Made by a program: the position numbers and the translations under genes. Positions 1-15,035 of a stretch of DNA of 15,035 nt are shown in pieces. The notes beneath the pieces were generated by a model. The model saw only the letters and a list, made by a program, of their open reading frames with translations. It was not told where the DNA came from and did not search any database. This stretch comes from a virus. Its lineage: Duplodnaviria > Heunggongvirae > Uroviricota > Caudoviricetes. The stretch covers positions 1-15,035 of IMG/VR virus record IMGVR_UViG_2565956611_000003; one strand, 5' to 3'. The first letter of the stretch is position 1. Every line of letters begins with the position of its first letter.

Positions 1-789
1 AGTTTGCTCCTGCCATAACGTGAAGAAGCAATGACCTGGTGGTCCGTGACTTCCCTACGCTGGCATTATCCAGATCAGGTGATACGGGTATTTCTTACTA
101 ATTCCTGTTAGTAATTGATAATAAATAAGTTTTTAAGAATGCATAAATTAAAAGCCTCAAAACTGACCACACAACTGACCACACATTTCGTTGAAGCTCT
201 ACGAACAACGATGAACAATAACAAACAAAAGGGAAATTTGCTGGTGGTTTTGCGTAACCGTTATCATTTTCCGGCTATCCGTCATGAAGCTGGTGGATGA
301 TCTGCGTGGTGATTTCCACCATTCAGAGCAGGGGCGGTCATCATGACCATGCCATAACAAAAACCCCATATTCGTGGGTTTTCTGTGTTGTGGCTATTCT
401 GCCGTTGCCGTGCTGGTGGATATTTCCGGTATGTGGCTCACCATATCGGCATCAGGCCCACCAGCGTGAAGCGTTTTTCATTTTTCGCGGGTATAAAAAA
501 TCGATGGGGCTGGCAGTCCGGAAGACGTCAGGGTACAGAGATTTGACCCGCCCCTCCCTGTGCATGAGCACAATAAGTAACCGAAGGCGGAATTCCGCCC
601 TCGGTGCTCACATATGAGAAACGATATTTCTTACACCGATACCCTTTATTTGGGTATCGCGAGTAAGCCCCAAAATCTGGGTGTTACTCTTACTACCCAA
701 ACTACGGGTAGTTTCATAGTCGAGTTGCAGATCTGCAACTCGCCACCAGTTGCTAAGTGCATTTTTGCACTTTCGGTAATATCAACCAG

Positions 790-1080
790 TTACCGCCGTA
801 AGTGCTCCGGCTTCCTCCACTGGTAAGTATTTTTCGCGCTCTCCCTCCGTTGTTGAGAACGGCGACGGTATGCCAGCAACTCAAGAACTCTGGTTCGTAT
901 GTTGCGCATATCCACGCCGTTAAGCTCAATACCGTCACGGCGCATTACCTCAGCCACCACACGCGCGTAATTTTCGGCTATCACGCTGTCCGGCTGTGTA
1001 GCCTGTTCGTCAGGCTGCTGACTGATTCCGGTAATGCGGCGAATTATTTTTAGTAGATCAGTTTCAGTCATTCTCGTCAT
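790..1080 (-). CDS. Hypothetical small protein (96 aa) immediately downstream of terL
   Basis: ATG at 1080-1078 overlaps the terL stop (ATGA). The first ~75 residues look protein-like; the C-terminal ~20 residues are Arg-rich with rare codons (CGG, AGG), so the true 3' end is uncertain. Confidence 0.4.
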   Translation of the reverse strand: MTRMTETDLLKIIRRITGISQQPDEQATQPDSVIAENYARVVAEVMRRDGIELNGVDMRNIRTRVLELLAYRRRSQQRRESAKNTYQWRKPEHLRR

Positions 1081-2738
1081 ACCCCATCAAATGCCGCAAG
1101 TCGCTCTTTCTGGCTGTCGCTCATATCAAATGCAAATTCCTCATGCTCAGCCTGGAATGTGCCAAACGCCATCAGCGCCGCAACGCTCGGGTCTATCTTA
1201 TTGGATGATTTTTTCTTGTTCGGCTTGATATTGGCGTTCGCGTCACTCTGCATCACAACATTACTCATTGACCAGGCCAGCACCGGATCACCACGATGAA
1301 CAATCACCTTCCGGTTAACAAAAACTTCGAACGATTTCGCCGCCGGACTAAAACGAAGGTACGTTTGCGGGAACGGCTCCACCTCAAATCCCGCTCCCTG
1401 TAGCTGCGTCCTCAGGTGCGTGGCGTTCCATGTATCGAAACCCACCAGCCTGATATTGAAATTCTCTGCATCCGCCATGATGTCATCACGGATACGGTCA
1501 TAATCAATGCAGTCACCCGGTGTTGTGCGTATCCAGCCCGCCTTTGCCCACTGGCGATAGATGGCGCGGTTTTTATTGGCAGGGTTCTGTAGCTGAAATT
1601 CCGGTAGATAGTGACGTGAAACCAGCATAATCTTTTTACCGACCGGAAAGGCATAGCACACGCTGGAAATATCGCTGGTTGATGATAAGTCCAGCCCCGC
1701 ATAGCACTCCTGCCCGTATAAATCCGCCTCAGCGAACGTTCCGGCGCACTCCGCCCATGCACCGTTACCCATCCACGGCGTAGCCCCCTGACACCAGATA
1801 TTGAATCGCTTGGTGAGCATTTCCACCCACTGCGACGGAATACCCCGCGCTTTCTGGATGGTTGAGGCCAGTTTTTCACGATCGACGGAAACATCGATAT
1901 TGGGATTCGCCTTTATCCACATCGCCGGATCGTCAACCTCGCTTTCATCATCCAGCTCGTAAATCAGTACGAACATGGATTCGTTCACCTCTTCACCATC
2001 CAGTATCTGGCAGCAATAGTCGTAGTGTTGTTTACAGGCTGAAACAACGTTGCTCCCCGATGTGGTGATGGCAAATAACAGCCCCTCCGGACGCGCCCCC
2101 ATCCCCAGTTCAAGTGCGGAATAAACCCCGTTGTCTGGGTGCAGGTGATATTCATCCACAATGGCAAGACTCGGGTTTGTCCCCTCAATGGTTGCCGCTT
2201 TTGCTGCCAGTGGCTTTAACAGGCTGTTGGTTTTCGGGTGTATCACCTTGTGCGCCTGAATATTTACCCGCTTTCGTAACGGTCGGGATAAAAGGCACAT
2301 CTGACGCGCATCATCAAACACGATCCGCGCCTGATCACGACTCACGGCGGCGGTGTAAATATCCTGCTGCCCGTTTTCCATAACCAGAAACCAGTTAGCC
2401 AGGATAGCGGCGACCGTGGATTTGGCATTTTTTCGCGGTACTTCAATGAATGCGCTGGTGTATTTGCGCCGTCCGGTGGCCTTAACCTTAAATCCCAGGA
2501 TGCAGGCAAAGGCGAACTGCTGCCACGGCTCAAGTTCAATGGGGCTACCGCGCATTGCGCCTTTTACGTGCGGGCACACCCGGGAAAAGGCAATAAACCG
2601 CTCCACGACCTCCGGATCGAACGTGTAAAGGGAGTTTTCAAGGTCAGAAAAATACCGTTTAACAGCCTGTTTCAGTCGTTTACAGGCCGTAATTTTGCCG
2701 TTTTTTACGCCTTCTGCGTACTCATGCCAGGCGGTCAA
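1077..2738 (-). CDS. terL: Terminase large subunit (Terminase_1 / HK97-like family)
   Basis: 553-aa ORF with a Walker-A-like motif (VPRKNAKST) near the N-terminus and typical TerL size. Start is TTG at 2738 preceded by a strong SD (AGAGGAAGAGGA) and overlaps the terS 3' end by 17 nt. Sits directly after TerS and HNH. Confidence 0.9.
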   Translation of the reverse strand: MTAWHEYAEGVKNGKITACKRLKQAVKRYFSDLENSLYTFDPEVVERFIAFSRVCPHVKGAMRGSPIELEPWQQFAFACILGFKVKATGRRKYTSAFIEVPRKNAKSTVAAILANWFLVMENGQQDIYTAAVSRDQARIVFDDARQMCLLSRPLRKRVNIQAHKVIHPKTNSLLKPLAAKAATIEGTNPSLAIVDEYHLHPDNGVYSALELGMGARPEGLLFAITTSGSNVVSACKQHYDYCCQILDGEEVNESMFVLIYELDDESEVDDPAMWIKANPNIDVSVDREKLASTIQKARGIPSQWVEMLTKRFNIWCQGATPWMGNGAWAECAGTFAEADLYGQECYAGLDLSSTSDISSVCYAFPVGKKIMLVSRHYLPEFQLQNPANKNRAIYRQWAKAGWIRTTPGDCIDYDRIRDDIMADAENFNIRLVGFDTWNATHLRTQLQGAGFEVEPFPQTYLRFSPAAKSFEVFVNRKVIVHRGDPVLAWSMSNVVMQSDANANIKPNKKKSSNKIDPSVAALMAFGTFQAEHEEFAFDMSDSQKERLAAFDGV

Positions 2739-3078
2739 GTTCGTCCTCTTCCTCTGTTTCCGGTGGATTTCTGCGACGGCTTACCGGGTCAAAACCCAGC
2801 AAAGAAGCCATTTTGATCATTATTCTTTCTGCGTCAGCCTTTGCGCTCAGTGCGGGGTTTCTGCTCTCGCTGCCCTGACTGTTAACAATGCTGAACCCGC
2901 GCGTCGCAAGGTCTTCGACGGCTTTGCGGTATATAGAGTAGTTAACGCAATACAGTTCCAGATTGCTCCAGTCGGCGGGGGTAAGGTCTTCCCGCCCGGA
3001 AAGCTGGCGTGATTTTTCCTTCCACTGCCTGACCGCGATTTCATCCAGGTAAGCGGGGGCTTTTGGTGGTCTTGCCAT
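2722..3078 (-). CDS. terS: Terminase small subunit, P27 family
   Basis: Translation from the internal ATG at 3078 (MARPPKAPAYLDEIAVRQW...LELYCVNYSIYRKAVEDL...RNPALSA...GFDPVSRRR) fits the P27-type small terminase pattern. The ORF-track N-terminal extension to 3219 has non-protein-like composition and would cover the putative cos region. Confidence 0.8.
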   Translation of the reverse strand: MARPPKAPAYLDEIAVRQWKEKSRQLSGREDLTPADWSNLELYCVNYSIYRKAVEDLATRGFSIVNSQGSESRNPALSAKADAERIMIKMASLLGFDPVSRRRNPPETEEEDELDRLA

Positions 3079-3129
3079 GTTCTTTTTTCGCCCAATTATT
3101 TTCAAAAAAATTACCGTGCACAAAAATTT

Positions 3130-3189
3130 GAGGGGGCGGTCGGTGTCCGGCAGGGACGGTTTCGTCCTGAAAACCACCCCCACCCCCTC
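3130..3189. other. Candidate cos / packaging recognition region between HNH and terS
   Basis: 288-bp non-coding gap (3079-3366). GAGGGGG (3130-3136) and CCCCCTC (3183-3189) flank a GGACG-GTTT-CGTCC hairpin (3154-3167), with C5 tracts at 3176-3187. HNH-cos-terS-terL is the usual layout of HK97-like cos phages. Confidence 0.35.
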
Positions 3190-3366
3190 TGACGGCCTCA
3201 CCAGCGATTGCGAAAACATTCCATGACCTCGCGGTCACGGTCGGTTAATCGCTTCGCTGTGGTGCGTTTTGTGCGCCCTGTCCTGTTGGCTTTGTGCTCT
3301 GTCTCCTGTGTCTTCCATGTGTCACGCTGCCTTATCAGTCCACGTATCAGCCTGGTTTGCTCCTGT

Positions 3367-3807
3367 TCAGTCATCATCGCCATACATCCAGTTGTTACGG
3401 TGTGCCGCCCGTTCTTCCTGCTCGCGATACATGCCCGCTTTACGGTTTGCTTTCGTGGCTGGATCTTCTCGTGTCGTCTTACGGTTGTGGCACGTCTGGC
3501 ACAATGCCTGGTGATTCCACTCAGGCCAGAAGAGAACATCACCGCCGCCATTGATGGGAATGATGTGATCCACCACAAGAGCTGGCGTATAAATCCCCTT
3601 AGCCAGACAACGCACGCATAACGGGTTTTTGCTCAGGTACAGGGCGCGGTATTTGTCCCACTGTCGGGAATACCCGCGCGCGCGGCGGTGTCCCCGTCTG
3701 GCATCCTCTGCACGCCATGCAGCCCGCCTGTGCTCTTCACACTTGCCGGACTTCACGCGCTTATTACAGCCAGGCTCAGTGCATCGCCTTAATGGTTGCC
3801 ACGGCAT
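3367..3807 (-). CDS. HNH endonuclease (terminase-associated, phage packaging type)
   Basis: 146-aa ORF with CxxC...DHIIPINGGG...N...CQTCHNRKT, a classic HNH zinc-finger nuclease motif. ATG at 3807 overlaps the connector stop by 1 nt. Located immediately upstream of terS. Confidence 0.85.
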   Translation of the reverse strand: MPWQPLRRCTEPGCNKRVKSGKCEEHRRAAWRAEDARRGHRRARGYSRQWDKYRALYLSKNPLCVRCLAKGIYTPALVVDHIIPINGGGDVLFWPEWNHQALCQTCHNRKTTREDPATKANRKAGMYREQEERAAHRNNWMYGDDD

Positions 3808-4109
3808 CAGTACACCCCTACGTCACGATAAACTGACCAGAGCGCAGAAATAGCCATAGGCAGTTCCGAGTGCTCCACTGGTGAAACCGCTTCCCGGTTC
3901 TCGTACAGGAAAGCGATGTACATCAGGCAACCAACACGCATTGCCGGGGTAAATTCCAGCCCGTCTTCAAAACGTTTCCCGATATGCTTCTGGCAGGCTT
4001 CCAGCGCCGCATCGGTATACATTTTCAGAAGTTCGCCTTCACCGGATAAATCATCATCAAGTCGAAGATGTGCCCTGACTTCATCAGGTGTAATTCTGGC
4101 TTCACTCAT
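3807..4109 (-). CDS. Head-tail connector / adaptor protein, gp6-like
   Basis: 101 aa from ATG 4109 (MSEARITPDEVRAHLRLDDD...LLKMYTDAALEACQKHIGKRF...), matching the gp6-like head-tail connector pattern. SD GGGAGA lies in the portal 3' end; 8-nt overlap with the portal stop. The ORF-track GTG start at 4196 would sit deep inside the portal gene. Confidence 0.75.
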   Translation of the reverse strand: MSEARITPDEVRAHLRLDDDLSGEGELLKMYTDAALEACQKHIGKRFEDGLEFTPAMRVGCLMYIAFLYENREAVSPVEHSELPMAISALWSVYRDVGVY

Positions 4110-5316
4110 CTTTTCTCCCTTTAATTTCCACAGTCTGTTTCCATGCCTGGCTGAACTCATCACCACCTTCACGCGGCGGCATACCCTCACGCTCACGGGC
4201 TTCGTTCGGATTCATGATCCCGTTCTTAATCCCTTTCTCATACGTGGCATAACGTTCGGTGGGTGTGGCGCGTAATAAATCGGCTGAATCAAACTCAACC
4301 AGATAACGGGTACCAGGTACGGGAGAAGCCACCAGCAAAGCGGCCTTGATTTGCTGTTCGAAGTTCGCCAGCCACGGGCGCATTGTCATGGTCAGAAACG
4401 CGCGGCTTGCCTCGCTGAAATTGCTGTAGGTGCTGTTGCTGTATTCCTGCAGAAAAATAGGCGATACGTTGAACATGCGGGCGATGTCTTCAATGGAGAA
4501 GCGACGGGAGGCCAGCCATTCCGCATCCTGGTTACTCATTCCCAGTTGCCTGTAATCCATGCCCCCTTCAAGGATTGGCGTTTTTCCGGCATTTTTCGCC
4601 CCCTTGTAGCGTTCCAGAGCATCCAATGCCTGTTTACCTTTCACGCCGTCCAGCCATTCGCCTGACGTGATAATCCCTGCCGCCATCATGCCATCTTTCA
4701 TAATGCTGGCTCCGTGACGCTGTTGAGCAAGGCCAAGCCCCAGCGCCTCACGGCAAATCGTGACGGGGGAACGCCCCAGAAAGCCATCATCCGAGGCATA
4801 GCGGAGATGCAAAACTTCTTCCTGTAAATACGTGCGCACCGTTCCTGTACAGGGTTCGGTGATGGTATAGCGGTATTTGTGTGCGCCTGTGCGTTCCGGT
4901 ACAACACACCCCGGCGCATAAGGATGAAGTGATTTTGGCTGCCCGTCCTGCCCCCACTCAATAACCGCATAGGCGTTACCGTTCAGCAGGCAGTGACGCA
5001 TCATTGTGCGTTTAAACTGGTAAGGTGTCTGGCACGAATTAGGCTGCTCATTCAGCAGAATATCTACTGGGTGACTGTCCAGCCATTCCCGCGCCTCCCT
5101 GCCCTTGTCATTACGTACCAGATACAGATAACACGGCATCGTGGCCACCGCCTCAGCGATGACAGAAACCGCATTCATCACTGCAGGCAATGATTCAGCC
5201 GTCCCGGCAGAAACATATTCTCCGGATCCGGTATTCGGTACGCCGGACAGCGCCAGAAAATCATCAATGGACAGGTTACGCTGCTCGCTTTTTTTACGAC
5301 TAAAAGGCCACCACAT
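4102..5316 (-). CDS. Portal protein, HK97 family
   Basis: 405 aa from ATG 5316 (MWWPFSRKKSEQRNLSIDDFLAL...), 1 nt after the protease stop. Size and position between protease and connector fit a portal. The ORF-track TTG start at 5406 would overlap the protease gene by about 90 nt. Confidence 0.85.
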   Translation of the reverse strand: MWWPFSRKKSEQRNLSIDDFLALSGVPNTGSGEYVSAGTAESLPAVMNAVSVIAEAVATMPCYLYLVRNDKGREAREWLDSHPVDILLNEQPNSCQTPYQFKRTMMRHCLLNGNAYAVIEWGQDGQPKSLHPYAPGCVVPERTGAHKYRYTITEPCTGTVRTYLQEEVLHLRYASDDGFLGRSPVTICREALGLGLAQQRHGASIMKDGMMAAGIITSGEWLDGVKGKQALDALERYKGAKNAGKTPILEGGMDYRQLGMSNQDAEWLASRRFSIEDIARMFNVSPIFLQEYSNSTYSNFSEASRAFLTMTMRPWLANFEQQIKAALLVASPVPGTRYLVEFDSADLLRATPTERYATYEKGIKNGIMNPNEAREREGMPPREGGDEFSQAWKQTVEIKGRKDE

Positions 5317-5317
5317 A

Positions 5318-5878
5318 TCACAACCCCGCCAGCTCAGACCAGCGATGACGATTATTTCCTGTCGGACGTAATTCAGGGTGCTGTGCAAACAACGAACGGT
5401 GGGCAATCTCCACGCCAGATTCTGGATAAGCAGGCATCGACGTTATTGTGATTTCACGGAGTTCAGCGGCGGTTACGGTACGCAGATACGGTTTTTGCGC
5501 GATACTCCACTCCTCGCATAATGCGCGAAAACCAAAGCTCATTCCTGTAATGTCGCCACGCTCCACCAGCGTAAGCACATCTTTTCCAAGCTGGGTATCC
5601 GGCGGTGTCAGTTCAAAACGTAACCCGGTGTTATCCTCAGTCAGTACCAGAGTGCCGGATTTGGTGCGCCCCAGCAGTTGGGTATAGTCATGCTCATACA
5701 GGCAGCGCACATCATTACCCGTCGCCAGATAGTCAGCAAAAGCCCCCGGCGTGAACTGTTCGCGGAATTCGTCCCAGATAATTTCTGAAAGGCTGTTCCA
5801 GCGAACGGCATACCCCACCAGCTTTTTATTGCTGGCGGTCAGTTCAGATGTGCGGATTTCAAAATCGGTGTTTTTCAT
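5318..5878 (-). CDS. Prohead maturation protease, HK97 family (S78-type)
   Basis: 186 aa with VGYAVRWN...H...ITGMSFGF motifs typical of HK97 prohead proteases. ATG at 5878 with GGAG 8 nt upstream. Confidence 0.85.
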   Translation of the reverse strand: MKNTDFEIRTSELTASNKKLVGYAVRWNSLSEIIWDEFREQFTPGAFADYLATGNDVRCLYEHDYTQLLGRTKSGTLVLTEDNTGLRFELTPPDTQLGKDVLTLVERGDITGMSFGFRALCEEWSIAQKPYLRTVTAAELREITITSMPAYPESGVEIAHRSLFAQHPELRPTGNNRHRWSELAGL

Positions 5879-5897
5879 CGGTGTACTCCATAAAGCT

Positions 5898-5920
5898 GAA
5901 AAAGGAGGCCGCAGCCTCCT
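5898..5920 (-). terminator. Intra-operon stem-loop plus U-run (attenuator-like) between capsid and protease genes
   Basis: On the minus-strand transcript, 7-bp stem AGGAGGC/GCCTCCT with 4-nt loop, followed by UUUUU, in the 54-nt gap after the capsid stop (5933) and before the protease start (5878). Confidence 0.5.
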
Positions 5921-5932
5921 CCTTACTCATGA

Positions 5933-7102
5933 CTAGCCAGCTTTCATTTCCAGAATTTTGATGGCGTTTGAATCCACCACACCACCGCCCAGATATTTAT
6001 CCGTGTGGACCTTGTAGAATCCGGGTTCAGTAATGTTGTCCGGTCGGGTGCGAATCCCTGTTACATGATCAACGATGAAATAACCACGACTGAAATCGCC
6101 AACCGCTAGCGGTGCTTTTCCTGCGCCGATGTCCGGCATGGACTCCAGGCAGTAAACAGGACGACCAAGCAACATATCCGGCGCACCTTCTTTAAGGCTG
6201 TCGCGCCAGATATAATCGCCGTTCTCATTTTTCAGCTTCTGTAGTGTCCCTGCCGTGCCCGAGTTCATCACCCAGACGGCATTTTTGCGGTATTTCGCTT
6301 TCAGCTTGTAGAGAATGTCGATCAGTTCGTCCGCTGTAATGGCGGTTCCACTTGCCGCTACTATTTTTTCAATGGTGCCAAAAGCGCGGGTTTTGTCACT
6401 GGTCGCCGCACGGGTGTAAGCCATGAAGCCTTTCGGCTTGCCGTTACCGTCGCCATTAACAAAATCATCCTCTTCGGTGCTGGCGAACGTGTCGGCAATT
6501 TCGGAGGATAACCAGCCCAGAATATCCACCTCTGAAAAATCCAGGATTTCCTGCGTGGTTTTCGGGTAGGCGTAGATCGGATTCAACTTGATGGTTACGC
6601 GTTCAATTTTCGGGGTGTTGGTTTCACTGCGTGCGCTGCCTTCTGTGCCTCGTCCTACAGTTGCGCCGCCAGTGGAAACCAGTTTCTGAAACTCATTTGA
6701 TTTTGCGGTCTTCACGGTCGCGATCACGCGCATAACACTGTCATCCTGTAGCTGGCGCATGACTTCGCGATCAAGCTCAGGAATTACGGTATATCCGCCA
6801 TCCCTGCCGCTGTCAGTGCTGGTGGACAGTGATCGCACATCTCCGGTTACGATGTAGTTACGCAATTCATCAGATGATAATTTCTGGATGCCCGTTCCTG
6901 GCTTGCTGCGTTCTTCATCAGCCACAGACTCGAGGCGGGAAATTTCTGTGTCGAGGGCATCAGCTTTTGCACGCAGTTCATCAAACTGTTTGCCTTCTTC
7001 AGCGTTCAGACTACGGTTTTCACTGTCGGCTTTTTCCAGCAGGGATCGCATCTGGTTTTTCAGGGCGTTTTTTTGCTGGCGGAGTTCGATTAATTTCTTC
7101 AT
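5933..7102 (-). CDS. Major capsid protein, HK97 family
   Basis: 389 aa with an N-terminal coiled-coil delta-like region (MKKLIELRQQKNALKNQMRSLLEKA...) and a body containing DFVNGDGNGKPKGF, typical of the HK97 fold. First gene of the head operon. Confidence 0.9.
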   Translation of the reverse strand: MKKLIELRQQKNALKNQMRSLLEKADSENRSLNAEEGKQFDELRAKADALDTEISRLESVADEERSKPGTGIQKLSSDELRNYIVTGDVRSLSTSTDSGRDGGYTVIPELDREVMRQLQDDSVMRVIATVKTAKSNEFQKLVSTGGATVGRGTEGSARSETNTPKIERVTIKLNPIYAYPKTTQEILDFSEVDILGWLSSEIADTFASTEEDDFVNGDGNGKPKGFMAYTRAATSDKTRAFGTIEKIVAASGTAITADELIDILYKLKAKYRKNAVWVMNSGTAGTLQKLKNENGDYIWRDSLKEGAPDMLLGRPVYCLESMPDIGAGKAPLAVGDFSRGYFIVDHVTGIRTRPDNITEPGFYKVHTDKYLGGGVVDSNAIKILEMKAG

Positions 7103-7388
7103 GAAGGTTTTCTCGTATTGGTTAAGATTCAGGACGTGAAACCAACACGGGGGGAGCGCCGCCCGACACTCTCGGCATCTCGCAGATCAACCCGGCATCG
7201 CGCAGGGGGTCAGGCGGCATTGTGGCGGCTCACGTCTGAGTGCCACGCTCCAACATATACATAAAAATCAGTATGTAAACACCTGTCAGTCAGACCGAAC
7301 AACCACGAAAGAACACGAACAAATAATTTACAAAAGAAGTAAACCATGGCCTATTATTGCTGTCTCTGACTACAACAAAGGACGCATC

Positions 7389-7895
7389 ATGAATTTAAGC
7401 GCAATGGTATATCCTGATACTTTCATAATTAATGGCGAATCATTCAGAGGTAAAAGAAACGCAAAAGAAAACAAGGTATTAATTCCATATACAAATGAAC
7501 CGGAAGTAACTATTGGTCAACACATTATCCAGCGTGTCGGTAAAAACGAGATAAATCTAAAAATTATAGATATGAAGTTGCTTCCCAATGGAACCCGCAG
7601 ACAGGGAACCAATCATCCAAATATGTTGACTCTCTATATTGAAAATATCACGGGAAATGAACATATGACGCCAACTAAAAGTAATACATTTAACATTGGT
7701 TCAATTAGTGGTGATCAAGTGCAGATAGGTGAGCATAACCATATGCTGGTAAACATCAGCATCACTGAACTGGTTGAAAAAGTCGCTAAATCGGGGGATG
7801 TACAAGCCAAATCAGTATTAAAGCAGTTACTGGAAAACAGTACCGTTGCCAGCATTGTTGGGGCTGGCGCAAGTGCCCTAATAGGCTTACTGTAA
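7389..7895 (+). CDS. Hypothetical protein (168 aa), AT-rich cargo gene with hydrophobic C-terminal segment
   Basis: ATG 7389 with AAGGA 7 nt upstream. Visibly AT-rich compared with flanking genes. The C-terminus (STVASIVGAGASALIGLL) is hydrophobic and Gly/Ala-rich. Stand-alone plus-strand gene followed by a strong terminator. No family recognised. Confidence 0.6.
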   Translation: MNLSAMVYPDTFIINGESFRGKRNAKENKVLIPYTNEPEVTIGQHIIQRVGKNEINLKIIDMKLLPNGTRRQGTNHPNMLTLYIENITGNEHMTPTKSNTFNIGSISGDQVQIGEHNHMLVNISITELVEKVAKSGDVQAKSVLKQLLENSTVASIVGAGASALIGLL

Positions 7896-7932
7896 AAAAA
7901 TGGCCTGGATTTTACCAGGCCTTTATTATTTT
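7896..7932. terminator. Bidirectional rho-independent terminator
   Basis: GGCCTGG (7902-7908), loop ATTTTA, CCAGGCC (7915-7921), flanked by A8 upstream and TTTATTATTTT downstream, so U-runs on both strands. Sits between the convergent 168-aa gene and the minus-strand replication-module operon. Confidence 0.7.
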
Positions 7933-8227
7933 ACCGTTTCACGGGATCTCGCATTCTGCGCCTTATTTTCCACAGATATTCGATCATCGCTTCCACCTGC
8001 TCACGGTTGGTTGCGAAAATTTCCCCGGTCAGTGAGCTACGCAGAAAATCATGATGATCCACAACAAACAACGCATCGGAAGAAAGCAGACGGCGATATT
8101 TTTTTGCTGTCATGGTTTCCAGATCATCAAAATCATGAAACTTTTTATGTTGCTGGACTTCTTCAAATGTCACTGGAATGTCCCCTCTGTTGTCGCTAAA
8201 ACGGTATGTTGTCCCCGTACGGATCAT
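7931..8227 (-). CDS. Hypothetical protein (98 aa)
   Basis: Protein-like composition; last gene of the minus operon running from the iteron region; overlaps the SSB 3' end. The start is ambiguous (ATG 8227 or ATG 8113) and no strong SD is seen. Confidence 0.45.
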   Translation of the reverse strand: MIRTGTTYRFSDNRGDIPVTFEEVQQHKKFHDFDDLETMTAKKYRRLLSSDALFVVDHHDFLRSSLTGEIFATNREQVEAMIEYLWKIRRRMRDPVKR

Positions 8228-8621
8228 CGTGCTGACCCGTCTGCTGTTTTGCCCTGTTCAGTGCGTCAGTGGCCTGCCCCTGCTGGCCTTTTTTGCCGCC
8301 CGGTCGCGCTGTTCGCGCACTGATCACGCTGTCTGCGATAACCTGCCAGCCCTGCCGCGTTTCGCCGTTCTGGCCTGTCCACTGGCTTACCTGCATGTTA
8401 CCCGCCACGCTCACCAGTTCGCCTTTGTGGTGTTTTGCCAGTGCGTCGGCCTGTCTGCCAAACGCCAGGACGGATAACCACATCATCGCCGTTCCGTCAT
8501 CTGCCTGGCTGCACGGAAGGGGGACCGCCATACTAGCCATCGTCATTTGTGTACCCTTGCTGGTGGTCTTTAACTGCGGGTCAGCCACCAGCCGCCCGTA
8601 AGCCGCTATCTGTGCTGTCAT
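8196..8621 (-). CDS. ssb: Single-stranded DNA-binding protein (SSB-like, OB-fold) with acidic C-terminal tip
   Basis: 141 aa. The C-terminus ends ...DDPYGDNIPF, resembling the conserved SSB tail (DDDIPF). The N-terminal region aligns by eye to the SSB OB-fold (IAAYGRLVADPQL...; WLSVLAFGRQADALAKHHKGELVSVAGNMQVSQWTGQNGETRQGWQV). ATGA overlap with the upstream ORF. Confidence 0.7.
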   Translation of the reverse strand: MTAQIAAYGRLVADPQLKTTSKGTQMTMASMAVPLPCSQADDGTAMMWLSVLAFGRQADALAKHHKGELVSVAGNMQVSQWTGQNGETRQGWQVIADSVISARTARPGGKKGQQGQATDALNRAKQQTGQHDDPYGDNIPF

Positions 8622-8863
8622 GCTGTCTGCTCTCCGGTTTTAACGTTGATGGTTGTCACCTGTTCCGCTTCGGCAATCTCCCGTTCTGTCAGCGTGGCAA
8701 AGTTTGCAGCTGCCGTTGTCATGAATGCGCTAATCAGTTCGGGATGTGCTTTCGCATATCCTTCCCCGGCGTTGCGGTCGATGATTTTTATCGACACCCT
8801 TAACCAGTGTTCCGTCAAATCAAGGGCGTGCGATTGTGATTTTTTTGTGTGCTTCGCTGTCAT
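8618..8863 (-). CDS. Hypothetical protein (81 aa), first gene of the operon leaving the iteron region
   Basis: ATG at 8863; translationally coupled to ssb (ATGA). No family recognised. Confidence 0.45.
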   Translation of the reverse strand: MTAKHTKKSQSHALDLTEHWLRVSIKIIDRNAGEGYAKAHPELISAFMTTAAANFATLTEREIAEAEQVTTINVKTGEQTA

Positions 8864-8908
8864 AGGCTTTATCTCACAGCAGTAAATTAAAATTTTTGCG
8901 TTTTAACC

Positions 8909-9136
8909 CTTCACCTGTTCACCTTTTGATATTTTCCATTTAAATTCATACTGTTAAGGGGTGAACAGTTTCACAAAAACTATTCACCAACTGTTCACCA
9001 CTGTTCACCCTTGAAGCTCAATAAACAACCAAAAAGGTGAACAGTGAATAGTTTGGTGAACAGTTCATAAATAACTGTTCACCCTATAATATACTGATAT
9101 AAAAGATAATTATGACAGGCTGAACAGTGGTGAACA
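8909..9136. repeat. Iteron array / candidate origin of replication (P4-type TGTTCACC octamers plus AT-rich segment)
   Basis: Eight perfect octamers: TGTTCACC at 8916, 8992, 9002, 9076 and the reverse complement GGTGAACA at 8960, 9036, 9055, 9129. Degenerate copies near 8909, 8981, 9044, 9119. AT-rich stretch with TATAAT at 9085-9118. Lies directly 3' of the primase/helicase gene. Confidence 0.8.
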
Positions 9137-9150
9137 GTTATTCAATAAGT

Positions 9151-10968
9151 TTAATTTTTGCTATCGTCATTAGTGACCGATACACATGATGGCATCCAGT
9201 CTTCTGATTCCTCCGTCAGTGTCACGTTTGAACGAAAACCGTGCTTCGTTTTCCGTTTCATATACTCCCTGCCATATTCCGCCATTGCCCCCGGCATATC
9301 TTTACCGAAGCGCGTCAGTGTTACAGGTTTACCAAACCCATGTGCCCTCATATAAGCCAGATAGGCATGATAGAGATACCTGCGTGGGCTGAATGGCACA
9401 ATTTCAGCATTACCCACTAACAGGCCATCACACATTACCGACGCCATGAGATAGCCGCAGAAGTCCACCAGCGAATCCCCCTCTCGCTTTATCGCCAGTG
9501 CTTCTTCAGATTTCTGCTGCTCATATAACAGGCGTCTGGCTTCGTCCTGGTCAGCAAACCGTGTAAGCAGATGGCGAATCACTACCGCCAGCTCACCTTC
9601 TATTTTTTCCGCCAGCATTGGATCGCGTTCGTTCTCCGGTACAACTTCCGAAAAATTGAATATCACCCGACGACGTGAGATCCCCCCGCTGCGGTCACTG
9701 AATGACATGGCGTTATTGTTAACCGCCAGCACTACTGCCGGAATACGCGTTGAGTAGGGGGCTTTGTGTTTCGGGTCAATTGCCACCTTGTCACCGCCTG
9801 TAATAGCCTTAATCCCTGCCCCATCACCAGCGTAGCGGGTCATATCCGGCATGATAATCAGCGAAAAGCCAACCACTAACGCGCGTTCCCTTGCATCTTC
9901 CAGCGCCTTCATGCTTGCCGATACTGTGTTGGCCTTACCCGCCAGCATGGTGCAAATCTCCGCCATCACGCTTTTACCACTTCCCCCTGGACCTGTTACC
10001 TCAATGAATAACTGCCAGTCGTACCGGTTCGCCAGCACCATGAATAATGCAGCCAGTACGCGATCCGCCTTGCGGTCATTCTCAGCCACCGAACGGCGTA
10101 ACCACTTCCAGAAATTCGGCGCATGTGTTGCCAGCGTTTCCCCCTCTGCTGGTGGGCTGAAAGGTAATTCACTGGCAATTAACAACCAGTCGTTTTTGTT
10201 ATGCTCCCGAAAATTACCTGTTCTGGTATCAAATACCCCGTTACTGAATCCAATCAGGTTACGGGCTGTATTCCCCATTACAGGCAAACTTAACTTCATG
10301 GTATCGACCGCCGATTTAATGGCGTTCTGCGAATAGCTGATCTCCGCATCAATGAAAATCTGTGCCATAGCTCGCTGTAATTCTTTATCCTGTACTGGCT
10401 CCCATACAACGCCGTTGTAATGGTGAACAGTGTCAGAGTCAGCATGAATCGCCAGTTCACCGCCATAATGTGCCAGGAGAACTTCGCCGCGTTGACTTGC
10501 TCCCATCTGGTTAAGCGCCAGTGATGAAGCGTTATCGTCTTTTACCCGCTCTTTTTTCTTTACAGGCAGTTCAACTACCTTTTTCTTTTCCGCCTGCTCT
10601 GCCCGTTCACGTTCCAGATATTCGCGCCAGTTCTCCCGTTTCTGGCTGTGCATTCCTTCAGGGTAATAATCAGCATCCCTGACACCTGCCACTGCCAGTT
10701 TCTGCCCGATGGTATTAACAAGCCCCGGACGCAATAACCCCGCCTGATAGAGACGCACGCGATAGCGTCCGTCCGATACGATTTGCAGGTTGTCCAGTTC
10801 GGCAAGTTGTTGCTCTCCAAGCCAGACAGGTGGCACGTTATCGCCAGCCAGTCGCCCGTCCTGTTCCTGCCACTGTTTCGCATGTGCCCACGCATCACTA
10901 CCCGCAAAAATGATGACTTCCGTCATTTTGTCACGCGGCTGGTGTTTTAAATTTGGCGCTTTTTTCAT
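9151..10968 (-). CDS. Replication initiator, primase/helicase type (P4 alpha-like / D5-like SF3 helicase with Walker A)
   Basis: About 605 aa from ATG 10968 (SD GGAGAGAG upstream; ATGA overlap with the preceding ORF). Walker A motif TGPGGSGKS mid-protein; large multi-domain protein next to the iterons. The ORF-track start at 10983 is GTG. Confidence 0.8.
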   Translation of the reverse strand: MKKAPNLKHQPRDKMTEVIIFAGSDAWAHAKQWQEQDGRLAGDNVPPVWLGEQQLAELDNLQIVSDGRYRVRLYQAGLLRPGLVNTIGQKLAVAGVRDADYYPEGMHSQKRENWREYLERERAEQAEKKKVVELPVKKKERVKDDNASSLALNQMGASQRGEVLLAHYGGELAIHADSDTVHHYNGVVWEPVQDKELQRAMAQIFIDAEISYSQNAIKSAVDTMKLSLPVMGNTARNLIGFSNGVFDTRTGNFREHNKNDWLLIASELPFSPPAEGETLATHAPNFWKWLRRSVAENDRKADRVLAALFMVLANRYDWQLFIEVTGPGGSGKSVMAEICTMLAGKANTVSASMKALEDARERALVVGFSLIIMPDMTRYAGDGAGIKAITGGDKVAIDPKHKAPYSTRIPAVVLAVNNNAMSFSDRSGGISRRRVIFNFSEVVPENERDPMLAEKIEGELAVVIRHLLTRFADQDEARRLLYEQQKSEEALAIKREGDSLVDFCGYLMASVMCDGLLVGNAEIVPFSPRRYLYHAYLAYMRAHGFGKPVTLTRFGKDMPGAMAEYGREYMKRKTKHGFRSNVTLTEESEDWMPSCVSVTNDDSKN

Positions 10969-11264
10969 TTCTGCTCTCTCCACGCGGCAATCATGTTTTT
11001 TAGTTCCTGTAGTTTTTTATCAACATCCATACATGACACATGGTTATTTCTGGAAAGCGGGATTTCCCGACTGAATCTGCTAATAAAGATCTCCACGTTC
11101 AGCGAACTAAGAAATGAATAGCCATCACGGATAAAATACACACGGTCAAACATCAGTTCTTTTACCGTTACTCTGTTACCGTTCTTATCCAGATAAATAG
11201 CGCCGGGGATAATTTGGGGGTGTGCATAACCGCTGGCAGTCAAGCCAGATAAATACGTTCTCAT
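10965..11264 (-). CDS. Hypothetical protein (99 aa)
   Basis: ATG at 11264; stop overlaps the primase start (ATGA). Moderately AT-rich. No family recognised. Confidence 0.5.
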   Translation of the reverse strand: MRTYLSGLTASGYAHPQIIPGAIYLDKNGNRVTVKELMFDRVYFIRDGYSFLSSLNVEIFISRFSREIPLSRNNHVSCMDVDKKLQELKNMIAAWREQK

Positions 11265-11270
11265 GATTAT

Positions 11271-11591
11271 TTATCCCCGATTTGAATCAGTATTCGCTTT
11301 CTTTATAGCATTTAATGCATCTGTGGCATTTTCAATGGTGCACCGTAACGAAATATCAAAATGTCCAAGCATTGCCAGTAACAAACCGATATTACCCATA
11401 TCAATGCGCATGGCCTTTTCGTCATAGTCCTCATTTTCTGACGCATGCCACATCAGGCTACCAATTGACGCAACAGCCATTGATATATTGTCAGTAGCCC
11501 CATCCGCAGCGGAATAAACCTTTTTAGCAATATCATGCTCACAGTTAAAATGCGGATTAATCAGGTACTGGTAATTTGACATATCAGGCAT
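11271..11591 (-). CDS. Hypothetical protein (106 aa)
   Basis: ATG at 11591 preceded by a G7 run acting as SD; 6-nt gap to the next ORF. No family recognised. Confidence 0.5.
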   Translation of the reverse strand: MPDMSNYQYLINPHFNCEHDIAKKVYSAADGATDNISMAVASIGSLMWHASENEDYDEKAMRIDMGNIGLLLAMLGHFDISLRCTIENATDALNAIKKANTDSNRG

Positions 11592-11787
11592 GGCACCCCC
11601 CCTGACGAATACGGGCGGCGAATACCATCACGCAGCCAGCCGGGGATTGCTGGCGTGCTTCCTGTTCGCTGCTGGCCTCAATGGTAATCACGCGCGGTTG
11701 TGCCGTGCTCAGGGCGATAAAACGCCAGATGTATTTATTCAGGTTGTACGAGTCCCGCCCTTGCGGGTGTATGGTATGATTTCTCAT
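11584..11787 (-). CDS. Hypothetical small protein (67 aa from the internal ATG; ORF-track version starts at a TTG at 11877)
   Basis: ATG at 11787 with GAGG SD. First gene after the leftward promoter. The 3' end contains the G7 tract and overlaps the next gene by 8 nt; it may be the N-terminal part of a frameshifted longer gene. Confidence 0.4.
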   Translation of the reverse strand: MRNHTIHPQGRDSYNLNKYIWRFIALSTAQPRVITIEASSEQEARQQSPAGCVMVFAARIRQGGCHA

Positions 11788-11885
11788 AGCTGCCTCGATA
11801 CTCTCGTTATCGTTGGTGGTTAGACGCCCCGTATGTGTTTCCGGCACTGCGGGGCGTTGCTCTTTGTATTTCAACAATCCTTTCG

Positions 11886-11963
11886 GTGTGTTTCATGTTA
11901 TGAGCGCATGAAACACACGTCAAGGCTTTTTGTATTTCTTTTTTTGTGTATACTGAAACACAC
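11886..11963. promoter_or_regulatory. Divergent promoter/operator region with three TGAAACACAC sites
   Basis: Perfect 12-bp inverted repeat GTGTGTTTCATG (11886-11897) / CATGAAACACAC (11907-11918) overlaps a leftward TTGACG-17-TAACAT promoter (-35 at 11923-11918, -10 at 11900-11895, minus strand). A third TGAAACACAC (11954-11963) overlaps a rightward TATACT -10 (11949-11954) upstream of the 11985 gene. Confidence 0.5.
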
Positions 11964-11984
11964 CGATGATTAGGAGTTTCAGAA

Positions 11985-12290
11985 ATGGCAACGGCTAACA
12001 AAAACGCAAAATCACAACTGACAACTGTCAGAGTCCCACTAGATGTTATGCAAGGGATGGAATCCGTTAAGCTGGACGGCGAAAGCAATGCCGGATTTAT
12101 CGTAACCGCCATGCGCGGAGAAATAGCCCGCCGCCAAGCAGAAGGCAGCGGAGAAAATCCCCTTGTGTCGTCACTGGATGCCCTGGCTAAGGTCGAACAA
12201 ATCGGCATCAAAGCAGCGGAAGAAATCGGGCAGCTTGTCACCGTTGCACGCGAAGAACTCCAGCGTCGCAAGACCAAAGAACCAGAGTAA
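11985..12290 (+). CDS. Putative small DNA-binding regulator (101 aa; possible ribbon-helix-helix type)
   Basis: ATG 11985 with AGGAG 8 nt upstream; typical enterobacterial codon usage. N-terminal QLTTVRVPLDVMQGM resembles a beta-strand-then-helix RHH start; this is a weak inference. Convergent with alpA. Confidence 0.55.
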   Translation: MATANKNAKSQLTTVRVPLDVMQGMESVKLDGESNAGFIVTAMRGEIARRQAEGSGENPLVSSLDALAKVEQIGIKAAEEIGQLVTVAREELQRRKTKEPE

Positions 12291-12332
12291 TCACCATCAG
12301 CGCCGTGGTGTAAGGTATTACGGCGCATTGCT

Positions 12333-12521
12333 ATGCAGGACAACACAATGACCGATAAAGAATTGACCAAAACATTATCACCGGCACGGAAAAGACGGCG
12401 CAGAAAGATAGAGCATGAATCAGAAAGATTCGCGCCATGTGCTTTTGCTCTTGAGAAATTCCTTAAAGAGCACAGGAAAAAGCTCTCGTTGCAAACCTTG
12501 GAACGAACCAAATCTGACTGA
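12333..12521 (+). CDS. Hypothetical basic small protein (62 aa), doubtful
   Basis: Follows the 101-aa gene and precedes the 12590 terminator; contains an RKRRRRK stretch. Weak SD and several rare codons (AGA, AGG, CGG, ATA). Confidence 0.3.
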   Translation: MQDNTMTDKELTKTLSPARKRRRRKIEHESERFAPCAFALEKFLKEHRKKLSLQTLERTKSD

Positions 12522-12589
12522 TCACATTGCCCACCAGCCGCAAATGTGGCATTGTTGGTGATGCGTTCAAGTTTAGTGTGTATCCATTG

Positions 12590-12618
12590 GCGACCGCCCC
12601 CGGTCGTCTTTGTTTTAT
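12590..12618 (+). terminator. Rho-independent terminator for the plus-strand operon
   Basis: Stem CGACCG (12591-12596), loop CCCC, CGGTCG (12601-12606), followed by TCTTTGTTTT. No U-run on the opposite strand. Confidence 0.6.
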
Positions 12619-12635
12619 ATGTCATATGCTCCCCT

Positions 12636-12860
12636 TTACGCTGCCTTACCTGAATTAACGCGGTCACGGCTTTGCACCCAGTCCATAACTTCGGAAAGCA
12701 ACCAGCCTACAGAACGCCCCCCAAGATTACGGCGAGACGGAAAGCCCCCTTTCTTCTCCAGTTCGTAGCGTGTAGTACGGCTGACGCCTGTTAACTTACG
12801 ACATTCATCCTCACGAATTACGCGATCTGTTAGTGATTGAAATTGTGTATTTTGATTCAT
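12636..12860 (-). CDS. alpA: AlpA-family prophage transcriptional regulator (small HTH excisionase-like activator)
   Basis: 74 aa (MNQNTQFQSLTDRVIREDECRKLTGVSRTTRYELEKKGGFPSRRNLGGRSVGWLLSEVMDWVQ...) matches the AlpA/CP4-57 regulator pattern. ATG at 12860 with GAGGG SD. Position near the integrase is typical. Confidence 0.85.
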   Translation of the reverse strand: MNQNTQFQSLTDRVIREDECRKLTGVSRTTRYELEKKGGFPSRRNLGGRSVGWLLSEVMDWVQSRDRVNSGKAA

Positions 12861-12892
12861 AAAAACACCCTCGAACGTAACCGAACAAGGGC

Positions 12893-12920
12893 ATCTTATT
12901 TACCATAGCAGTTGGTGCAA
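12893..12920 (-). promoter_or_regulatory. Candidate sigma70 promoter for alpA
   Basis: Minus-strand TTGCAC (12920-12915), 16-bp spacer, TAAGAT (12898-12893), about 30 nt upstream of the alpA ATG. Confidence 0.35.
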
Positions 12921-12963
12921 TATTGGAAAAATAAACTTTATTCTAATTTATCGTTCTCCATGA

Positions 12964-13818
12964 TTAATTTTCATTAGATAACATTTTTCTTATTTTTTCT
13001 AAAGAATCGCTGCGCATTATTTTTTCTAAGAAGGGTTTTACAGTCTGAGCAATAGCAAAGGTGTCCTTTTCACCATCAGGATACAAAGATACGGCAAGCA
13101 CCCCTAATGAAATTTTTCTATCTGTAGACAACTCCCAAGATAATAAGTCAATTAATGGGATTATCTTATAATCAATAATTTTACGTCGTATGCTCTCCCA
13201 ACTTCCTGCAATTGGTTTGTCTGGCTCAACAATTGAAAGTTCACTACGCCATTTTGGTAATAGTTTTGTAAACGCTTCAATCAACTCATCATCTCTGTTA
13301 TGTAGTAAGTCAACAGAAACAAGCATATTATCTAATGTATCAGAAAGGAGATTCACTGGTTCACGCATCACAGCCCAAAACATCCCATTATCTTCTGATA
13401 TTAAACTTCCAACCATCTCATTATCTATGATGATTGGTTTATCCTTCCAATATCCTCTTTCCGCAGTCAGTTTATTAATCATTGATATATCAAACCTTGT
13501 TACAGGTTTAATTCCATCATCATAACTTAGCTCAATTAACTTCGGTTGCACTTTATGGTCATATTCTTTTTGTTTATCACAAAACCAATCGTCTTCTTTC
13601 AGCTCTCCAAATGGATCCCCGTAATTATTATGCAACGGGTATTCAGCACCAAACATAAATCCATATTCAGGCATCTCAGAATGTTTCATCGTTAAATCAT
13701 CTTGTCGCCAATATAATTGGCGAAATAGATCTTTATCCGACAAGTTTTCTAGGCAATCATATTTGCCTAAATCAAATGACTTTGGTAAATCTTTTTTACT
13801 ATTTACTTTTTTCGTCAT
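12964..13818 (-). CDS. Hypothetical protein (284 aa), AT-rich cargo gene between integrase and alpA
   Basis: ATG at 13818 overlaps the integrase stop (ATGA) with GAGGG SD. Markedly AT-rich compared with int and alpA. Acidic, soluble-looking protein; no family or catalytic motif recognised. Confidence 0.7.
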   Translation of the reverse strand: MTKKVNSKKDLPKSFDLGKYDCLENLSDKDLFRQLYWRQDDLTMKHSEMPEYGFMFGAEYPLHNNYGDPFGELKEDDWFCDKQKEYDHKVQPKLIELSYDDGIKPVTRFDISMINKLTAERGYWKDKPIIIDNEMVGSLISEDNGMFWAVMREPVNLLSDTLDNMLVSVDLLHNRDDELIEAFTKLLPKWRSELSIVEPDKPIAGSWESIRRKIIDYKIIPLIDLLSWELSTDRKISLGVLAVSLYPDGEKDTFAIAQTVKPFLEKIMRSDSLEKIRKMLSNEN

Positions 13819-15035
13819 TGTATCCCTCTCAATATCACAATATTTTCATTATATCCTGCAATCATATCAAGACGCTCAACCCATAGATTCAGTGCGTCCC
13901 GTTTCGCCTGCAAATAGCGTGAATGGTTATAGGTTTTTTGCTGACCTGGCATCTGATGCGCTGTGATGTGCTCCACGATATGCGGATCGACACCTAAATC
14001 ATTCAGCATAGTTGTAAACGTGTGTCGGAAATCATGCAGCGTCCAGTGTTCCTGCTTAAGCCGCTTATGCGCATTTCGTCCATATTGCGCCACCGTGGTA
14101 TCTTTTTTCAGTTCGCCGAGTAATAACCCAGTGTGTGCGTTTTGCTCCACCAGCTTCTGAATGAACGGCAAAATACCATCAGGAATAGGTCGGAATATTG
14201 TTACCTTCGTTTTGCTGTGCTCTTTTGGCACTGTCCACAACATTTCTTTCAGATCCCATTCTTTGATCTCTGAAAGTCTGATCTCTGCCGTTCTGCACCC
14301 GAACACAATTAACAAGCGCATTAACGCACTGTAATAGGGAGCGAACACATCACCATCAATAGCGCGTAGAATTTCTTTTAGTTCGCTGTTGCTGTGCACT
14401 CTCTCGCGGATTTCTGCTCTCTTACCCACATCAGTAACGATCAAATCGTCCAGGGCGTTGCTAAACGCGTAGCGCCGCCTGCGGCAAAACTTTAGCGCCT
14501 GTTTGCATGTCTGCATGACATGGCCCGCTGCTACTGGTGCTTTTTTTCGTACGCGGTCAAAACATGCGATCCACTGCCTTGTATCACACTTATCAAGGGG
14601 AATTGCCCCAATATGGCAAATGATGTGCTTATCCATACGCTGCACCAGCTTTATGTAATCTTTGCGGTTATCCTTCGCGTATTCCTCCAGCCAGTAGTTA
14701 ATCGCTTCCTTCACCGTAACGGGTTTTAGTGCTTCCTGTACTGTGGCGCACAACTCATAACGGGGGTTTTTACCCTCAGCCAGCCATGCCCGGCACAGTG
14801 TGCGTTTTTCCCTTGCGGCTTTCAGCGACAATTCAGGGTAAGCCCCCAGCTTTAACCGCTCTGCGGCAACCTCACGGCCTCCCGTTCGGTACCGGAAATA
14901 CCAGGTTAATTTGCCGCCCTTTGAGTGTTTAATCTCCAGCCCGCCCCCGTCGGAGTAAAAACGCTCTTTTTCTGCCTGGACAGCCGCCAATTTTTTTAAC
15001 GTCGAATCGCTCAGTTTGTTTAGTGCTTTTCCCAC
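13815..15035 (-). CDS. int: Tyrosine integrase, P4 family (5' end at or just beyond the window edge)
   Basis: 406 aa read to the window edge. C-terminal catalytic region with LHDFRHTF (HxxR) and a downstream Tyr (KTYNHSRYL). The N-terminal region (LSDSTLKKL...LGAYPELSLKAAREKR) resembles P4-type integrase arm-binding domains. The first codon in the window is GTG. Confidence 0.9.
   Translation of the reverse strand: MGKALNKLSDSTLKKLAAVQAEKERFYSDGGGLEIKHSKGGKLTWYFRYRTGGREVAAERLKLGAYPELSLKAAREKRTLCRAWLAEGKNPRYELCATVQEALKPVTVKEAINYWLEEYAKDNRKDYIKLVQRMDKHIICHIGAIPLDKCDTRQWIACFDRVRKKAPVAAGHVMQTCKQALKFCRRRRYAFSNALDDLIVTDVGKRAEIRERVHSNSELKEILRAIDGDVFAPYYSALMRLLIVFGCRTAEIRLSEIKEWDLKEMLWTVPKEHSKTKVTIFRPIPDGILPFIQKLVEQNAHTGLLLGELKKDTTVAQYGRNAHKRLKQEHWTLHDFRHTFTTMLNDLGVDPHIVEHITAHQMPGQQKTYNHSRYLQAKRDALNLWVERLDMIAGYNENIVILRGIQ

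Follow-up and report, generated by a model that had tools for sequence, protein, structure and literature searches.

Phage-inducible chromosomal islands (PICIs) of Escherichia coli and the satellite P4 are the closest described systems for the locus studied here. RgdR (ECs1581), a 99-aa protein of O-island 51/CP-933C in enterohemorrhagic E. coli (EHEC) and the prototype of Pfam DUF4222, raises LEE1 expression, type III secretion and Congo-red binding, lowers motility and has a weak, non-specific affinity for DNA; an RGD (Arg-Gly-Asp) motif at position 20 is tied to its activity and to the activation of type III secretion (PMC3378721). Deletion of rgdR in EHEC gives host-level phenotypes, and RgdR and its variants expressed alone from a low-copy plasmid gave regulatory phenotypes in a paper from which the words 'toxic' and 'toxicity' are absent (PMC3378721). 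Every E. coli PICI analysed in one survey encodes RgdR (PMC6092414). The left operon of P4 runs cI/Icd-like ORF (open reading frame), epsilon, ORF151, ORF106 (DUF5375) and alpha, and the Icd-like/cI ORF shares its last 8 nt with epsilon, the helper derepressor. We analysed two adjacent small genes, ORF106 and ORF99, in a 15,035-nt stretch of DNA from a caudoviricete virus (IMG/VR record IMGVR_UViG_2565956611_000003, positions 1 to 15,035), the whole of which we call the window. Published papers on capsid-forming PICIs and EcCIMP1 make no mention of these genes. By its alignments, ORF99 is a divergent member of the RgdR family, while ORF106 is one of several exchangeable cassettes in an operon slot that holds epsilon in P4.

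The pair lies in the following operon, which reads on the minus strand from the Icd-like gene through ORF106 and ORF99 to the replicase:

11584-11787, minus strand: Icd-like gene, 67 aa (NCBIfam NF033153, 1.6e-19; annotated in RefSeq)
11271-11591, minus strand: ORF106, 106 aa, ATG start
10965-11264, minus strand: ORF99, 99 aa, ATG start
9151-10968, minus strand: replicase, 605 aa, ATG start (Pfam D5_N, DUF5906, Pox_D5)

The 3' end of the Icd-like gene (...TGC CAT GCC TGA) encloses the ORF106 ATG, giving an overlap of 8 nt (ATGCCTGA). The ORF106 stop codon, TAA, is followed by ATAATC (6 nt) and then by the ORF99 ATG, a spacing quoted here as a 9-nt gap; the two genes share one reading frame, with the TAA and these 6 nt as their sole separation. 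A Shine-Dalgarno-like GGGGA lies 9 nt 5' of the ORF99 ATG. At the other end ORF99 finishes with AAATGA, and the replicase ATG at 10968, preceded by a Shine-Dalgarno-like GGAGAGAG, overlaps its stop codon (ATGA). The ORF list places the replicase start at a GTG (10983), which is unnecessary, and RefSeq also uses the ATG. An earlier interpretation made from the letters alone (the sequence-only reading) had described two moderately AT-rich genes of 106 and 99 aa with ATGA coupling into the replicase. All of this was borne out: both are in the minus-strand ORF list at the positions above, the pair has a GC content of 0.40-0.42, that of the replicase and Icd-like genes being about 0.52-0.54, and the overlap can be read directly at 10968. 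Its placement of the pair between a switch region and the replicase needs one correction, as the pair does lie between them but does not abut the switch region, from which the 67-aa Icd-like gene separates it. Both are real protein-coding genes, since every natural allele is intact and both are under purifying selection (ORF106, 50 distinct alleles, ratio of nonsynonymous to synonymous polymorphism pN/pS 0.33; ORF99, 48 distinct alleles, pN/pS 0.32). RefSeq carries both as coding sequences.

The sequence-only reading had called both genes uncharacterised and not recognisable. For ORF106, an unannotated member of a rare family, this description stands. ORF99 is recognisable: it matches Pfam DUF4222 (PF13973) over residues 17-67 with 60 bits (cutoff 27, E 1.6e-16), and all 99 of its 99 residues align without gaps to RgdR, the protein with published phenotypes (PMC3378721) that occurs in PICIs (PMC6092414), at 30% identity (E 8e-13). 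A profile search returned 714 relatives, almost all of 99 aa, which fall into an RgdR-type and an ORF99-type group. G7, A10, S11 and G12 are invariant across a 42-sequence alignment of the family, within an N-terminal tail that is predicted to be disordered and bears a conserved SG(L/F)TASG motif. From this alignment AlphaFold2 predicted a beta-barrel core at about residues 21-60 (predicted local distance difference test, pLDDT, about 90) and a helix at 78-98, and the modelled core looks Tudor/SH3-like. The protein is basic, with an isoelectric point (pI) of 9.4. Single-sequence and profile searches against PDB sequences gave nothing significant for ORF99 or ORF106. Tudor-like domains that interact with RNA polymerase (the CarD/CdnL N-terminal, UvrD/PcrA C-terminal and NusG/Spt5 KOW domains) share 8-17% identity with ORF99; the fold is very common, and the modelled likeness would indicate resemblance only, not membership.

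RgdR resembles ORF99 in length, basic character, end-to-end alignment and island type. The two genes also hold the same position: in Sakai Sp7/OI-51, ECs_1581 closes the series of small genes ahead of the replicase gene ECs_1582, with the same 4-nt ATGA overlap by which ORF99, the last gene ahead of the island replicase, is joined to its neighbour. They differ in sequence (30-36% identity, separate allele groups), in net charge (+11.6 for RgdR vs +3.7 for ORF99) and in their upstream neighbours, ECs_1578-1580 in Sakai and ORF106 here. Where RgdR has its RGD motif, residues 20-22 of ORF99 are P20-G21-A22, a substitution that would weaken the claim of RgdR activity in ORF99 and not that of family membership. 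On alignment and profile evidence, ORF99 is a DUF4222 protein and a divergent allele of the RgdR family.

We then compared what lies downstream of DUF4222 genes. The replicase start overlaps the DUF4222 end in all 73 scorable viral-contig loci, and the same arrangement is found with replicase bodies of the DUF927 and AAA_25 types. Distant DUF4222 alleles in Buttiauxella, Citrobacter and Shigella are arranged likewise; a 66-aa ORF intervenes between DUF4222 and replicase in Erwinia, and in Xenorhabdus the order is DUF4222, an ORF106-like gene and a Zn-ribbon/TOPRIM primase, with the order of the pair reversed. A contig scan with a narrow back-translated pattern yielded 6 loci. In tblastn and blastn searches of the phage collection ORF106 and ORF99 found nothing; the RgdR core domain alone reaches phages, matching an unannotated ORF in e14/SfIV-like lambdoid phages.

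The replicase of the window is itself divided. Its residues 145-595 are similar to the half of P4 alpha that carries the helicase and origin-binding parts (51% identity to alpha residues 320-771; PDB 1KA8 at 3e-24), and no match was found to the first ~320 aa of alpha, nor any zinc-ribbon or TOPRIM hit in Pfam. Its first ~140 aa (10549-10968, minus strand) form a separate conserved module, phrog_2850, for which Pfam gave no match. This module is 69% identical to the N-terminus of Sakai ECs_1582 over 140 aa, while the remainders of the two proteins are unrelated. Elsewhere the module forms the start of DUF927-type and AAA_25-type replicases, and it usually adjoins DUF4222 (45-99% identity), even where the rest of the replicase has been swapped. 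It is present without DUF4222 in locus L007, and it has no match in the Xenorhabdus Zn-ribbon/TOPRIM primase.

ORF106 gave no match in Pfam, NCBIfam or PADLOC, and in PHROGs it matched only families of unknown function (phrog_15327 at 2e-71). Among 5.8 billion proteins, a word-indexed search picked out 19 close relatives, and HMMER, run exhaustively against 1.84 billion cluster representatives, returned 15 matches. Three proteins of about 100 aa, with 27-42% identity, are credible distant homologues. Three long HMMER matches (1222, 1651 and 1346 aa) were rejected as repeat-driven artefacts, being tetratricopeptide or immunoglobulin-like repeat proteins with 4-12 matching stretches each. Other integrase/AlpA satellites carry these homologues in the same operon ahead of the replicase, where their start usually overlaps an upstream small gene (Icd-like in L003) and other small proteins and three replicase types follow downstream. 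By these searches the family of ORF106 is very small and confined to this operon slot. It is acidic (pI 4.8), and AlphaFold2 predicted a two-helix hairpin with helices at 19-51 and 58-104 (pLDDT 78.8). Foldseek comparison of the model with PDB and BFVD gave no significant match (best E 0.13 and 0.27), and the generic helical hairpins that it returned (spectrin repeat, EsxB and UvsY) were not taken as clues to function.

The 8-nt overlap between the Icd-like gene and ORF106 is kept in 67 of 71 loci. In the other four (L014, L018, L036 and L038) about 450 nt, presumably an extra gene, splits the two, and the overlap is lost. The slot is filled by ECs_1578-1580 in Sakai and by epsilon in P4, so ORF106 is one of several exchangeable cassettes at this Icd-coupled position; it has no similarity to P4 epsilon, P4 ORF151, P4 ORF106 or Sakai ECs_1578-1580. 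In L003 and L007 the ORF106 homologue is followed by a basic protein of 112-122 aa (L003:6306-6674 and L007:6300-6638; 57% mutual identity, pI about 9.6), with a segment that resembles a helix-turn-helix by eye and no Pfam family. At these loci, as in the window, an acidic hairpin protein and a small basic one stand in succession ahead of the replicase, the second case of this pattern.

The reading we favour, with confidence that is moderate and about evenly balanced against doubt, is that the pair are co-translated adaptors of the early operon, ORF99 being a host-directed Tudor-like factor of the RgdR family and ORF106 an exchangeable acidic hairpin cassette. The ATGA overlap suggests that ORF99 would be made in step with the replication initiator. 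Because the initiators downstream of DUF4222 are mutually unrelated, its partner would be a shared host component, for example of the transcription or nucleoid machinery, on which it would act at the start of replication, and not the initiator itself. A target of this kind fits the pleiotropy and weak, non-specific DNA binding of RgdR. ORF106, in turn, would bind another protein, whether from the host, the island or the helper phage, and it would be neither an enzyme nor a DNA-binding regulator; binding to a protein is the most economical role to propose for a product of this size, predicted fold and charge. The pair as such is routine, two conserved small early genes in a common class of E. 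coli satellite. RgdR/DUF4222 has mainly been described as an EHEC virulence regulator, and here it emerges as a module that is widespread and linked to replication initiators, both in satellites and in lambdoid phages. The link suggests that the native function of the family serves the cycle of the mobile element itself, and it opens a testable way into the mechanism of RgdR.

Several points weigh against the adaptor reading. ORF99 carries PGA at the position of the RGD motif, so the phenotypes of RgdR may not transfer to it. Those phenotypes were measured in EHEC and mostly under plasmid expression (PMC3378721), and they may be side effects and not the native role. The constant coupling to the replicase and the N-terminal module, conserved in most loci with DUF4222, are equally compatible with a direct role in replication, and the perfect co-occurrence of the two genes in E. 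coli could mean a functional pair, not mere linkage.

A direct role would make ORF99, possibly together with ORF106, a replication accessory, acting as a loader, conferring origin specificity or partnering the N-terminal module. We regard this as unlikely. In its favour, the ATGA coupling holds without exception in the 73 loci, the N-terminal module stays beside DUF4222 when replicase bodies are exchanged, and DUF4222 adjoins O-like initiators in lambdoid phages. RgdR binds DNA, if weakly (PMC3378721), and basic ORF99 is paired with acidic ORF106. However, DUF4222 precedes mutually unrelated initiators (a P4-alpha-type helicase, DUF927, AAA_25 and O-like proteins), the Xenorhabdus primase has no match to the module and is separated from DUF4222 by the ORF106-like gene, and L007 has the module but no DUF4222. 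Deletion of rgdR in EHEC, moreover, produces phenotypes at the level of the host (PMC3378721). Neither protein resembles a known loader such as DnaC or lambda P. The sequence-only reading had named clear homology to a helicase loader as the result that would tell against its own suggestions; it was looked for and not found, as the family searches were blank and the fold matches of ORF99 and ORF106 were a generic beta-barrel and a generic helical hairpin.

Comparison with P4 bears on the function of ORF106. The window shares with P4 an AlpA/ORF88-type regulator, an Icd-like ORF, an overlapped small gene, further small genes and a replicase, which here is 51% identical to the C-terminal half of alpha. 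ORF106 occupies the slot of epsilon, with the same 8-nt overlap at the Icd-like 3' end in P4 and in the window. By contrast, epsilon, ORF151 and ORF106 of P4 have no detectable homology to either gene here, and the 106-aa length common to P4 ORF106 and the present ORF106 is a coincidence. The N-terminus of P4 ORF151 gave a weak match to DUF4222 (BLASTP E 0.14, hhalign probability 21%). For ORF106 and the epsilon family (PF25738), Pfam gave no match at E<=0.1, BLASTP nothing and hhalign a probability of 0.2%.

These comparisons raise the reading, which we consider improbable, that ORF106 does the work of P4 epsilon or P1 Ant: expressed through its coupling to the Icd-like ORF, it would be an anti-repressor or another factor directed at the helper, and would derepress a helper prophage or interfere with it. 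It would account for the shared slot and Icd-like overlap, which persists across the 67 loci and at the distant homologue in L003, for a slot that accepts alternative cassettes such as Sakai ECs_1578-1580, and for a small, non-enzymatic and, as modelled, helical product. Yet ORF106 has neither sequence nor profile similarity to epsilon, epsilon is not among the viral fold matches listed for ORF106, and in four loci the extra ~450 nt stands between the Icd-like gene and ORF106. The direction of induction is also at odds with it: PICIs are described as induced by helpers, not as inducing them. For the broader idea of helper interference or anti-defence, put forward in the sequence-only reading, the evidence on ORF106 speaks neither for nor against. 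Independently of this reading, ORF106 marks an exchangeable Icd-coupled slot that is the home of the helper derepressor in P4, so the cassettes that PICIs carry there are reasonable candidates for satellite-helper or satellite-host factors.

A consensus scan identified the probable start of the early operon:

11895-11923, minus strand: sigma-70-like promoter candidate (TTGACG, 17-nt spacer, TAACAT; consensus scan only)

It lies 5' of the Icd-like gene and points away from the divergent YlcI/YnfO gene. No terminator-like site was found on the minus strand from this candidate down to 9151, and no promoter-like site directly 5' of ORF106 or ORF99, the sole minus-strand site being the one ahead of the Icd-like gene. 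Between the promoter candidate and the Icd-like gene, the 121-nt leader contains a GC-rich hairpin (GACGCCCCG...CGGGGCGUC) at 11823-11858 on the minus strand, and its fold energy is -26.4 kcal/mol (z = -2.35). A search of the leader for an antisense RNA of the C4/CI type gave no Rfam match at the gathering threshold and one chance-level match under permissive settings.

We examined the linkage of the two genes in 5,426 complete E. coli genomes and in 75 viral-contig loci with an ORF99-type allele. In E. coli, ORF106 and ORF99 each occurred in 474 genomes at 513 places. ORF106 lay directly 5' of the ORF99-type allele in 74 of the 75 viral-contig loci, the lone exception being at a contig end, and the spacing was constant at 9 nt. 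The flanks are mosaic, with 47-99% identity in the Icd-like gene and a swapped replicase body in 15 loci. Since pairing and spacing are constant beside variable flanks, the two genes constitute a linked recombination block within a mosaic.

Perfect co-occurrence applies to the E. coli alleles only and breaks down at the family level. ORF106-family genes occur without DUF4222 in L003, L007 and L011, and DUF4222 occurs without ORF106 in RgdR-type loci, most DUF4222 genes having other upstream neighbours. A natural recombinant (L103:587-1213) joins ORF106 (95% identity) to an RgdR-type DUF4222 that begins like the ORF99 type over its first ~7 residues (MRTYLSG), and the breakpoint appears to lie just within the 5' end of the DUF4222 gene. 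The recurrence of acidic helical and small basic neighbours in this slot leaves some partnership possible.

The suggestion in the sequence-only reading of a toxin-antitoxin-like pair, widened here to an abortive-infection pair with one protein toxic and the other neutralising, is not supported and very improbable: it draws on the tight two-gene block with equal E. coli counts, the acidic and basic partners and the GC content below that of the flanks, but linkage is not obligate, the two families separate and recombine and their order is reversed in Xenorhabdus, no toxin-antitoxin or defence family matched in Pfam, NCBIfam or PADLOC, the pair lacks a promoter-like site directly 5' and is embedded in a replication operon (ORF106 starts within the upstream gene and ORF99 ends within the replicase gene), and RgdR variants expressed alone gave regulatory phenotypes with no wording of toxicity (PMC3378721).

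The lambdoid matches of the RgdR core domain trace to an unannotated DUF4222 ORF (Pfam 3.2e-19) found in three e14/SfIV-like phage genomes and in the e14 element of E. coli K-12:

L104:3502-3681 (E. coli K-12 e14, NC_000913.3 about 1204001-1204180): e14-type DUF4222 ORF
L099:2938-3159 and L100:2938-3159: e14/SfIV-like DUF4222 ORFs

The ORF runs out of frame within the 3' half of ymfM, annotated as a 'cell division inhibitor', and overlaps, or sits just 5' of, the start of an O-like initiator gene. Among K-12, phage 720R4 and SfIV, all six substitutions in the domain region (6/6) are synonymous in the DUF4222 frame, and four of five in the 3' part of ymfM, by pairwise counts, alter the YmfM protein. 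These counts point to the DUF4222 frame as the one under purifying selection at this locus. The K-12 e14 copy has no ATG or GTG start and would be reached from a TTG start or by a frameshift. A re-attribution of the SfiC/YmfM phenotype may be needed. Like ORF99, the e14/SfIV-like ORFs have the DUF4222 core and stand immediately 5' of an initiator gene that they overlap. Unlike ORF99, they are unannotated, have 59-73 aa without the SGLTASG N-terminal tail and the C-terminal helix, and precede an O-like winged-helix protein in place of a superfamily 3 (SF3) helicase.

A wider joint reading would combine DUF4222 as a general host-takeover factor, the ymfM re-attribution and ORF106 as a new epsilon-like factor; as a whole we think it improbable. 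DUF4222 proteins such as ORF99 and RgdR could be a takeover factor of temperate phages and satellites of Enterobacterales, placed before the initiator gene and overlapping it. It would target the nucleoid or the transcription machinery, perhaps by antagonising H-NS or as a Tudor-like protein that binds RNA polymerase. Raised LEE1 expression, reduced motility and increased Congo-red binding, as seen with RgdR, resemble a loss of H-NS function. ORF106, for its part, could be a new epsilon-like, helper-directed factor of capsid-forming PICIs.

Finally, we compared the surroundings of the pair with bacterial genomes. E. coli SMS-3-5 and other strains match the 1.1-kb stretch at 10800-11900 with 100% identity. 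In the RefSeq annotation of SMS-3-5 the matching region is flanked by thiM and rcnR, and its genes run integrase, DUF6387, AlpA-type regulator, YlcI/YnfO (on the opposite strand), Icd-like, ORF106, ORF99, DNA primase family protein, hypothetical protein, single-stranded DNA-binding protein (SSB) and hypothetical protein, followed by a packaging set of major capsid, prohead protease, portal, connector, HNH and small and large terminase genes. Within the window, Pfam matches identify AlpA, SSB and the replicase. With an integrase, AlpA, a replicase, a capsid and packaging set of its own and no tail genes in about 15 kb, the region shows the features of a capsid-forming PICI. Judged by gene order, the window has the layout of such a satellite, integrated in the E. 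coli chromosome, in agreement with the satellite context proposed by the sequence-only reading.

Two other genes stand at typical satellite cargo positions and are candidate accessory or defence genes, both of low GC content (0.32-0.40):

12964-13818, minus strand: DUF6387 gene, 284 aa, between int and alpA
7389-7895, plus strand: ORF of 168 aa on the opposite strand, between the replication and capsid modules

PADLOC gave no match for either. The early module also occurs in L105 (NZ_CP148328.1; pZ1323HEC0475-3), a complete circular 'plasmid' record of 10,790 bp with the early genes int, helix-turn-helix regulator, YlcI, Icd-like, ORF106, DUF4222 and primase. Its packaging module differs, comprising a ClpP-protease/capsid fusion, a tail assembly protein and DUF1441, and the record looks like an episomal or excised satellite with the same early module.

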